From: Batkoa obscura
Taxonomy: Eukaryota
Direction of reading: 5' to 3'
DNA: 64,000 bases
Assembly: GCA_030770535.1 (NCBI GenBank)
Contig: JASVEC010000027.1
Location: 310,001-374,000, forward strand
How positions within the stretch are numbered: position 1 is the stretch's first letter; each line of letters starts with the position of its first letter. Made by a program: the position numbers and the translations under genes. This document shows, piece after piece, positions 20,554 to 23,065 of the stretch. The notes beneath the pieces are model-generated. The model did not search any database and was not told the DNA's origin. It saw only the letters and a list, made by a program, of their open reading frames with translations.

Positions 20554-23065
20554 TTACCAATTTAATTCATACATAGTAGCCACCTTATTCCCAGAACCTG
20601 TGGTAAATATACTACCATCCAGTGACAAATCACTTGCTAATAAAGTACCATTTTCAATATACTACAAAAAGAAATTATTAATTAAATCAATTAACTTTAA
20701 CTTAATTTTATATTATAATGAATTTACTTCAAACCTATTTTCAATTTTATGAAAATCACCTAAATTCCAACCCATAATACCACCATCTTTAGAAGTAGAA
20801 ACAAATTTATTTCTTTCTTCATTAAGTTTTAAAGAAATTACACAATTACTATGAACTTCAATTAATTCCCCAAATTGGGCTATTTCAAGTGGCGCTTTTG
20901 ATATATCATCTATTGGTAATATTGATATTTTACTATTTTCTAATCTAAATAAATAAATAAATAATAAAATTAATTAATTGTTCTATTATTAATATTATAA
21001 TATTTTAAATACAAATTAAATTTTACCCAACAATAATAACCCCATGTTTATCATGGAATCGTGGATCAAAATAACCAATCCCTAAAGAAAACACAGGCGA
21101 TGTCATATTAATAATACTTAATGGATTCCCACTTTCCATATCCCATAATCTTACTGTTTTATCCAATCCACCTAGAATTTATTATTTCAATATTAATTAT
21201 GTAATTCTATTATTTGAATTTCATCTTACCTGTAGCTATTTTCCTACCTATAGGAGATATATCGACACAAGTAATGCCATTTGTATGACCAGTAAATACT
21301 CTATATAAAACTATTAATTGGAATTCATTTATCAATTAGAGCCTCTTACTTATAGGTTTTCTGTGTAACAATATCCCAAGATAATAGATCTCCATTAGAA
21401 CAACATGCAAATACAAGGTTTGAATTAGGACAAAAAGTAACTGCATAGACAGCTTCAGAATCGACTTCAAAAGAAGCTAAACTAGTTGGACGACTCTATT
21501 TTTTATTATTAAATTTAAATTTAAATTTCTATATCTAGTTCTATTAACTTACCATAGTTAAATCCCAAACAATAATAGTTGAAGATTCTCCACCAACAGC
21601 TAAATACTTTCCATTAGGTGCTATTTTCATAGCTCGTATATAATTATCCTAATAAAACAATTTCAAAAATTCAATTAATTTATTATTTCAATTTAATTAA
21701 ATAATTATTCAATATTCAATATTCAATATTCGATATTATTTACCATAGATTCTAATACCATAATTGGATTAATTAAATCTTTTTTACGATCCCATATTTT
21801 AACTGTACCCTAATAATATTATAAATAAATTAATATTAATATTAAATTATATTATATTATTATTAATAATAGTACCAATCCACCTGTATAAAGTATACTA
21901 GCATCTTTAGAAGATGAAATAACAGAGCAAACCACTTCACCATGAGGTAAAGCGGATATTAAATTAATATGTAGATTATTAGGTAACAATTGTTTATTTT
22001 TTTCTAATTCCATTGAATTCCTATAAAGATATCAGTATTAAACTAAAAACTAATAAAATAGATTTTACTTGAAATAATTTTTTGATCTATCATATTGTAT
22101 TCCATCACTTTCACTATCATTTGCAAAACTTAAATTTGAATTTACTATTTCTTCTTTATAAATCAATTTTTCTTTATCATATCCTTTTTTGCACTTTTTA
22201 AGTTATTAATTAATAAAATAAAATAGGTTAGATAAATTATTTACTTTTAAAATAGTTTCATCTTCATTTAATAAAACTACATTACTTTCATTTAATCGAA
22301 TTGTATTAGCTTCATTACGTCTTAATAAATTAGTATCGATATCAGTGGAAGCTAGAAATAGTTATCATAATACTTAATAAAAGTCTTGATAACTAAAATA
22401 AATAAACTTACATTGTCTACTATAATCCTGTGGCAATCTCTTTTTTTTATTTTGTGATAAATAATTATTGTATTTTTTATGTTCTTGTATTATAGTGTCA
22501 TTAAAACTTGTTTCCAATAAGTCAAAATTTGAACTTTTAAAATCTTCATCTCTAGACTAAATATTATTAATTTCTTTTAATAAAAATAAAATGCTATTTT
22601 TTGTTTAAAATTACTTGTTCCATCATCAATTTAAATTTTTCAATTTTATCTGCTAACTCAAATTTTTTCTATATTAAAGCCCATTAAAATCCTTTTAAAT
22701 GGAATAAATTCATTATCTTTGAACTTACCTCATTATCTAAAATCCCAAACATTTCATTAACTAATTTCAAGGCATAACTATTGATTCTCTTCTGGGTTTC
22801 TAAACTTTTATTTAATGTATGGGATAATTCATAGTACTAAAGGTAAGTTCATATTAAATATCATAATATTAATTATTATATATATGTTTTTATTACTTAC
22901 CAATGTATATTTTCCCGCCAACTCTTCCGAGTCATTGATTTGTTCTTGATTCCTCAATGCAAGTTGATGTAACTGTTCAATTTCACCTTTCATAAATTGA
23001 TATCTTTTACTTAAATTGGTTGAATTTGAGGTGTCATTATAGTAAAAATGGTTGTTGTTATTCAT
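20554..23065 (-). CDS. Groucho/TLE-family transcriptional corepressor (Q-like domain plus WD40 propeller), multi-exon
   Basis: Spliced translation: [134 protein letters not shown]. Confidence 0.88.

Follow-up and report, generated by a model that had tools for sequence, protein, structure and literature searches.

Groucho and Tup1 were long regarded as a single corepressor in its animal form and its fungal form, respectively. Animal Groucho/TLE1-4 proteins (PF03920 plus WD40; 1GXR, 2CE8, 2CE9) are ~770 amino acids long and consist of a helical N-terminus, a disordered linker with a basic cluster and a seven-blade propeller. Fungal Tup1 (PF08581 plus WD40; 1ERJ) has the same overall layout. 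In the part of the paper available to us, Copley (2016) argued that Groucho and Tup1 are ancient paralogs, named Naegleria as the sole genome with both, and found only Tup, and no Groucho, in fungi (PMC4943189). The same text attributes to the pair F661/E677 of Groucho, which is Y/L in Tup1, the ability of Groucho to hold the first aromatic residue of an eh1 or WRPW motif, and describes Groucho proteins outside animals in ichthyosporeans, Corallochytrium, Trimastix and Naegleria (PMC4943189). According to the accessible portions of two further reports, mutation of TLE1 R534 abolishes WRPW/EH1 recognition (10.64898/2026.06.16.732780), and both R534 and L743 are important for partner binding (10.64898/2026.06.16.732780; 10.1101/2020.03.10.986323).

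The gene described here lies on the minus strand at 20554..23065 of a stretch of Batkoa obscura DNA that was analyzed over its whole 64,000 nucleotides (“the window”). It is an intact, spliced Groucho/TLE ortholog of Entomophthorales, distinct from Tup1, and it likely encodes a corepressor whose WD40 pore would grip WRPW/eh1-type peptides and whose predicted N-terminal coiled coil would oligomerize.

Scripted splicing on the minus strand, from the ATG at 23065 to the TAA ending at 20554, joins 14 exons into 565 codons plus one terminal stop, with no internal stop. The 13 introns are 48-95 nt long with a GC content of 5-24%, and GT..AG ends are present in 13 of 13. Exon 1 (22901..23065, residues 1-55) begins the long N-terminal helix, exon 2 (22729..22836, residues 56-91; intron 2 lies on its 3′ side) holds the core of the TLE_N-like match, and exon 3 (22615..22668, residues 92-109) encodes helix 2 of the Q-like domain. 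The linker, predicted to be disordered, begins in exon 4 (22412..22556, residues 110-158). This exon carries a KKKR basic cluster (22437..22448, residues 146-149), a predicted nuclear localization signal that aligns with the basic cluster of animal TLE linkers. The linker continues through exons 5 (22245..22351) and 6 (22069..22193) and ends in exon 7 (21876..22020), where the WD40 propeller starts (HGEVVC, residues 261-266). The remainder of the propeller is encoded by exon 8 (21744..21809); exon 9 (21553..21648), with Y308, R310 (TLE1 R534; codon 21634-21636) and E326; exon 10 (21350..21495), with Y354; exon 11 (21230..21300); exon 12 (21027..21171), with F437 (TLE1 F661; codon 21089-21091) and ~7 inserted residues that are specific to the clade; exon 13 (20728..20944), with E460 (TLE1 E677; codon 20938-20940) and a further ~9 inserted residues, likewise clade-specific; and exon 14 (20554..20661), which spans 108 nt including the stop and contains L538 (TLE1 L743; codon 20638-20640).

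Five of these introns are seen spliced. Introns 8, 9, 10 and 11 are skipped exactly at the predicted coordinates in contigs of runs X2 and X9, which come from two studies, and intron 13 is joined across in one X9 contig. Note that X2 and X9 are taken as RNA runs by guess, none of the listed runs being recorded as such; the two DNA-type runs, X1 and X6, contain no joint of introns 8-11. For introns 1-7 and 12 the support is the open frame together with the gene model P0001, and 75 further read joints lie beyond those displayed. P0001 is the NCBI gene model KAI9298326.1 of Neoconidiobolus thromboides FSU 785, whose database label is only “WD40 repeat-like protein”. It has the same length as the window protein, is colinear with it without gaps, and is identical at 533 of 565 residues (94%). 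Both domains are more strongly conserved than the linker, with 13 of 426 and 19 of 139 positions differing, respectively (Fisher p 1.6e-5). In the predicted model of P0001, residues 12-87 and 90-111 are helical, confidence is low for 110-248, and the propeller is confidently modeled from ~253 onward. The sequence-only reading of this locus had described a gene spliced beyond its exon 1 reading frame and encoding an N-terminal helical region, a variable linker and a propeller, all of which agrees with the 14-exon frame and with P0001 and its model. The motifs that it quoted are all found, except that one segment reads [13 protein letters not shown] and not ...TIMVWDL.

Several other features of the window were recorded. 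At 23430-23530, 370-460 nt upstream of the Groucho ATG, is a short, very high-copy dispersed repeat, whose bin reaches a contig depth of ~84,000 and ~47,000 in two DNA-type runs. Its end motif occurs at 2859, 17884, 23515, 27652, 56396, 57535 and 57685 (7 in the window versus 0.11 expected), and it may be a MITE-like element, for which no clean terminal inverted repeat was listed. The upstream neighbors are a spliced Pcf11-like gene (CID domain plus zinc finger; 24700-27000, plus strand) and an intron-split dihydrofolate reductase gene (27857-28629, minus strand). Downstream on the minus strand (9518-19860), a CaMK-like protein kinase appears to have its spliced exons at 19010-19860; a kinase C-terminal exon at 9518-9916 would form with them one gene of ~10 kb, or else two kinase genes are present. 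Two ORFs without a Pfam match at 33672-34654 (plus strand) contain motifs that give the impression of a degraded DDE-type transposase. Tandem paralogs at 40376-45788 and 52763-54118 (both plus strand) comprise F-box-like genes, of which there are two or three, and a pair of calmodulin-like EF-hand genes. An NAD-dependent epimerase at 51374-52089 (minus strand) resembles GDP-fucose synthase, which fits the fucose-containing walls of early-diverging fungi.

When all PDB sequences were searched with phmmer, the best match was human TLE1 (206 bits, E 7e-60, in a single stretch covering residues 252-563), compared with 81 bits (E 7e-22) for yeast Tup1 and an E value of ~1e-21 for WDR5; similarity to TLE1 is thus far above the generic WD40 level. 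The best 120 of 1027 matches in a large protein search were four fungal ortholog rows followed by 116 TLE-type proteins at 218-226 bits, 115 of them named as animal TLE/Groucho and one unnamed with TLE_N. Below P0001, the fungal rows were an Entomophthora muscae protein (373 bits; 37% identity over 97% of the length) and two assembled proteins (358 and 351 bits). Identity of the window protein is 39-41% to TLE and 24-29% to Tup1, including the Tup1 proteins of its own relatives, and its WD40 region scores 220 bits on a custom TLE profile versus 105 on a Tup1 profile. In a search of 1.84 billion representatives, the single-propeller relatives among the best 150 (scores shown of at least 284 bits) were P0001, P0002 and P0004, and the rest were multi-repeat WD40 proteins. 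The structures nearest to the Atlas's own model are TLE/Groucho clusters (TM 0.90). Foldseek with the predicted model places TLE1 chains at ranks 1-6, a result that is partly circular because animal TLEs are in the model's alignment. Pattern matches yielded no Groucho either in viral contigs (0 of 31 confirmed) or in prokaryote genomes, where the 2 of 27 confirmed were both generic WD40 proteins at 26-28% identity. An identity as TOPLESS was also considered and rejected. TOPLESS proteins have a LisH/CTLH N-terminus and two propellers, according to the portion of the source at hand (PMC4943189); the protein here has one propeller only, and its N-terminal 150 amino acids gave no LisH/CTLH Pfam match.

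The N-terminus is more diverged. On the first 150 amino acids of P0001, TLE_N (PF03920) was the best Pfam family at E 2.5e-5 and 25.1 bits, to be read against cut-offs of 32 bits (Pfam at present) and 24.0 bits (Copley 2016), and Tup_N (PF08581) was absent at E values up to 10. No single exon matched TLE_N. With custom profiles, the N-terminus of the window protein scored 25 bits on TLE versus −1 on Tup1, and 500 shuffled sequences gave 10.5 bits or less; on the same TLE profile, real Tup1 N-termini reach 17.9 bits, and those of P0003 and P0004 stay below 1 bit. A profile-profile comparison (hhalign) returned a probability of 49%, and the top three Atlas feature matches were TLE_N, each scoring under 0.9. 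A four-copy model of residues 12-112, representing the putative Q-domain tetramer, gave a median of 0.29 versus a mark of 0.32. Taken by sequence, this region is probably a Q-like domain homologous to TLE_N but eroded.

The peptide-binding pocket is of the Groucho type. The window protein has F437/E460, and F/E is found in 5 of 5 fungal-clade rows and in 116 of 116 TLE proteins, versus Y/L in 114 of 115 Tup1 proteins (the remaining one has a gap). At 13 pocket or known-mutant positions, numbered from the 1GXR alignment, 12 residues are identical to those of TLE1. The same is true of 5 of 5 clade rows, with propellers only ~48% alike. The exception is L702, at which all five fungal-clade rows have Ile. 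Ten of the 13 positions, R534 included, are the same in Tup1 and should be considered non-discriminating; the three that separate TLE from Tup1, among them L743, are all TLE-type here. Over 56 columns that separate TLE from Tup1, the window protein is TLE-like at 27, Tup-like at 6 and neither at 23. The two insertions flank the blade of E460, and together with L702I may have changed binding specificity. Compared with animal TLE1-4, the protein thus shares the helical N-terminus, basic linker cluster, propeller and equivalents of F661, E677, L743 and R534. It differs in its length of 565 amino acids, its weak TLE_N match, the two later-blade insertions, L702I, and a linker with 1% Gly and 1% Pro that is without a Gly/Pro-rich stretch. 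The Wnt/TCF or Notch/HES partners of animals would not be expected in a fungus. The Naegleria protein, as described in the text seen, is without TLE_N and the full F/E pair (PMC4943189), whereas the fungal protein keeps both a TLE_N-like region and F/E.

Phylogenetic analysis placed the gene in the same family. A quick tree of 39 rows joined the Groucho-like fungal clade to animal TLE at 99. An LG+C20 tree of 31 rows, from which four long outgroup rows and four near-copies were left out, joined them at 100/100 with animals solely on the Groucho side, and a constraint placing the fungal clade with Tup1 was rejected (AU test, p 2.6e-7). The clade sits outside the sampled animals (100/98, LG+C20). 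Note that long branches meet in these trees, that the outgroup consists of multi-repeat WD40 proteins and not WDR5, and that the sampling is without ichthyosporean, Naegleria, Trimastix or other unicellular Grouchos. Profile scores and pocket residues, together with the trees and the AU test, support the earlier claim of a Groucho/TLE protein that is not Tup1, for which a WD40 tree had been suggested.

Relatives also encode an ordinary Tup1. For comparison, 118 Tup1-type loci were drawn from metagenomes by motif pattern; among the matches listed (best 25 families), Tup_N was present in at least 6 of 10 scanned control Tup1 ORFs at 63-106 bits, and one of these ten was used to fetch named Tup1 proteins. 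Separate Tup1 proteins were found in N. thromboides FSU 785 (P0147, KAI9292168.1), E. muscae (P0139, KAJ9080183.1) and Massospora cicadina (P0236). All three have the Y/L pair and cluster together, nested inside Tup1. The NCBI model of P0147 has 443 amino acids and, unlike its E. muscae and Massospora orthologs, no Tup_N region; it is probably a truncated gene call. Two named species, N. thromboides and E. muscae, therefore encode Groucho and Tup1 as separate genes, and Groucho is an addition and not a replacement. The sequence-only reading had proposed a Groucho-based repression system for this lineage and suggested looking for a separate TUP1; the relatives do have a normal Tup1 as well.

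Intron positions provide a further comparison. Intron 10 interrupts K386 in phase 2 and, in the alignment, falls at the Arg that precedes QFQGH in TLE proteins. An acceptor variant of human TLE6, c.1245-2A>G, given in the accessible part of PMC9587212 (Table 3), places human TLE6 intron 13 at phase 2 of codon 415. A by-eye count on Copley's TLE6 row, in the part of that alignment available, puts codon 415 at this very Arg and also recovers G352, R409, W446, V503 and S510 of the PMC9587212 table. Intron 2 lies at the point where two fish TLE isoforms (P0079 and P0037) switch to unrelated sequence; within the WD40 region, no boundary was marked by isoform deletions of the 116 TLE proteins. The aligned point of intron 13 is 108 nt from the stop in both genes. 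Introns 1 and 13 may also match those of human TLE1, and intron 8 may lie within two residues of one. In contrast, a rough heuristic inferred 19 intron positions in Tup1 loci (87 of 118 loci gave one), and none of them coincides with any of the seven WD40 introns. From these alignments, at least two intron positions are shared with vertebrate TLE genes.

Three other explanations of the locus were weighed. The first is that the assembly contains animal or ichthyosporean DNA as a contaminant or chimera; the insect-associated life of the host fungi would fit this, and no one read contig spans the whole 8.5 kb around the gene. Two DNA-type runs, however, cover 30 of 30 bins over 18500-27000, a fungal Zn2Cys6 gene is present within the same window, the introns are short and AT-rich, and base composition agrees with that of the neighboring ORFs (GC3 0.16 compared with 0.19-0.29). 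The best animal match is only ~40%. Moreover, orthologs forming one clade are found in N. thromboides (on a 209 kb contig; 94% identity) and in E. muscae (two records, on contigs of 211 kb and 128 kb; 37%); within this clade the Neoconidiobolus and Entomophthora sequences separate in the way that their Tup1 genes do. Given these diverged orthologs, which extend to a second fungal family, the locus is not contamination, which the sequence-only reading had also thought unlikely; we give this explanation next to no weight. A fast-evolving Entomophthorales Tup1 duplicate that converged on TLE-like residues might be imagined from the many pocket residues common to Tup1 and Groucho and from the long-branch warnings in the trees. 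It is largely refuted, and highly improbable, in view of the AU test, the identity of 39-41% to TLE versus 24-29% to Tup1, the match to TLE_N and not Tup_N, and the introns, of which none in the WD40 region matches Tup1 and intron 10 matches human TLE6.

It is unlikely, though less so, that the gene is a true Groucho ortholog whose function has drifted, such that the protein serves as a scaffold for unrelated partners, as does mammalian TLE6, with no reading of WRPW/eh1 and no repression. The eroded N-terminal match, the linker unlike a GP region, the clade-specific insertions with L702I near the pocket, and the long branch would all fit such drift, as would the count of strict WRPW or eh1 motifs in window ORFs of at least 30 amino acids, which is zero over these 64 kb. 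Against it, the 12 of 13 pocket positions, F/E among them, are kept in 5 of 5 rows with propellers that otherwise agree at ~48%, and TLE6 itself has lost F/E in Copley's alignment, as far as the part seen shows (PMC4943189).

The matching introns imply that the gene goes back to a Groucho gene with introns and was passed on as genomic DNA, by vertical descent or by an old transfer. We rate vertical descent with many fungal losses at about even, an old DNA-level transfer from a unicellular holozoan as possible and appreciably less probable than that, and transfer from an animal as doubtful. Taken together, a single entry of holozoan genomic DNA into the ancestor of Entomophthorales falls slightly short of an even chance, with an arthropod-associated ichthyosporean a likelier donor than the insect host. 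In its favor, the gene has so far been seen in two neighboring families only (the best 120 of 1027 matches; also PMC9409958, in the portion available). In the part of the paper at hand, Copley found no Groucho in Spizellomyces, Mortierella, Allomyces, Fonticula, Nuclearia or the 2015 nr database (PMC4943189), so that vertical descent needs many losses and transfer needs one event. By eye, the fungal proteins also agree with the ichthyosporean rows visible in Copley's alignment in residue states that differ from those of animals, such as the absence of Trp before TGGLD, which argues against an insect donor. On the other hand, the clade sits outside the sampled animals (100/98), the shared introns fit vertical descent equally, and the apparent absence elsewhere in fungi rests on the best 120 of 1027 matches. 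The Groucho-like genes of Naegleria and Trimastix, as reported in the text seen, suggest an ancient, often-lost gene (PMC4943189). The earlier statement that this lineage retains Groucho is thus right as to the presence of the gene, but “retains” presumes vertical descent, and an old holozoan transfer also fits.

The gene represents a real and apparently undescribed fungal branch of a known family. Its relatives include two E. muscae records named “Transducin-like enhancer protein 2” (KAJ9049280.1 and KAJ9083720.1), a direct ortholog with the same insertions and pocket (37% over 97% of the length). That name is an automatic NCBI label, through which the similarity was already in the databases. 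In the literature covered, which did not extend to subscription journals and was in part accessible only in excerpt, no report of a fungal Groucho was found for Conidiobolus, Entomophthora or early-diverging fungi. In the available portion of a C. coronatus genome paper from 2025, TUP1 appears twice and Groucho not at all (PMC12387763).

By analogy with TLE biology, the protein would enter the nucleus through KKKR (146-149) and assemble through its predicted N-terminal coiled coil into an oligomer or tetramer on chromatin, where the WD40 pore would bind WRPW/eh1-type tails of DNA-bound factors and nearby genes would be repressed. The sequence-only reading had likewise suggested that partner factors with WRPW or eh1 motifs may exist; among the window's ORFs of at least 30 amino acids, no strict motif of either kind was found. 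Since there is no Gly/Pro-rich linker, animal-style recruitment of HDAC via a GP region is not evident. Work would likely be split with Tup1-Cyc8 by client, Groucho binding those partners whose motif begins with an aromatic residue; by prediction, such partners would not fit the Y/L pocket of Tup1.

More tentatively, and with a likelihood that we place somewhat under one half, Entomophthorales may be the only known opisthokonts with both systems, a working Groucho with an animal-like gene structure and its own WRPW/eh1-tagged factors beside Tup1-Cyc8. This Groucho would have been inherited from the common ancestor of animals and fungi or acquired intact from a holozoan, and the spore and insect-infection switches of the group may be under its control. 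A culturable fungal group with both genes makes their paralogy directly visible inside opisthokonts. It also permits a test within one cell of whether an F/E or a Y/L pocket sorts partner factors. The gene further sets two histories sharply against each other: retention accompanied by many losses, or the passage of a developmental regulator from another eukaryote into fungi that live in association with insects.
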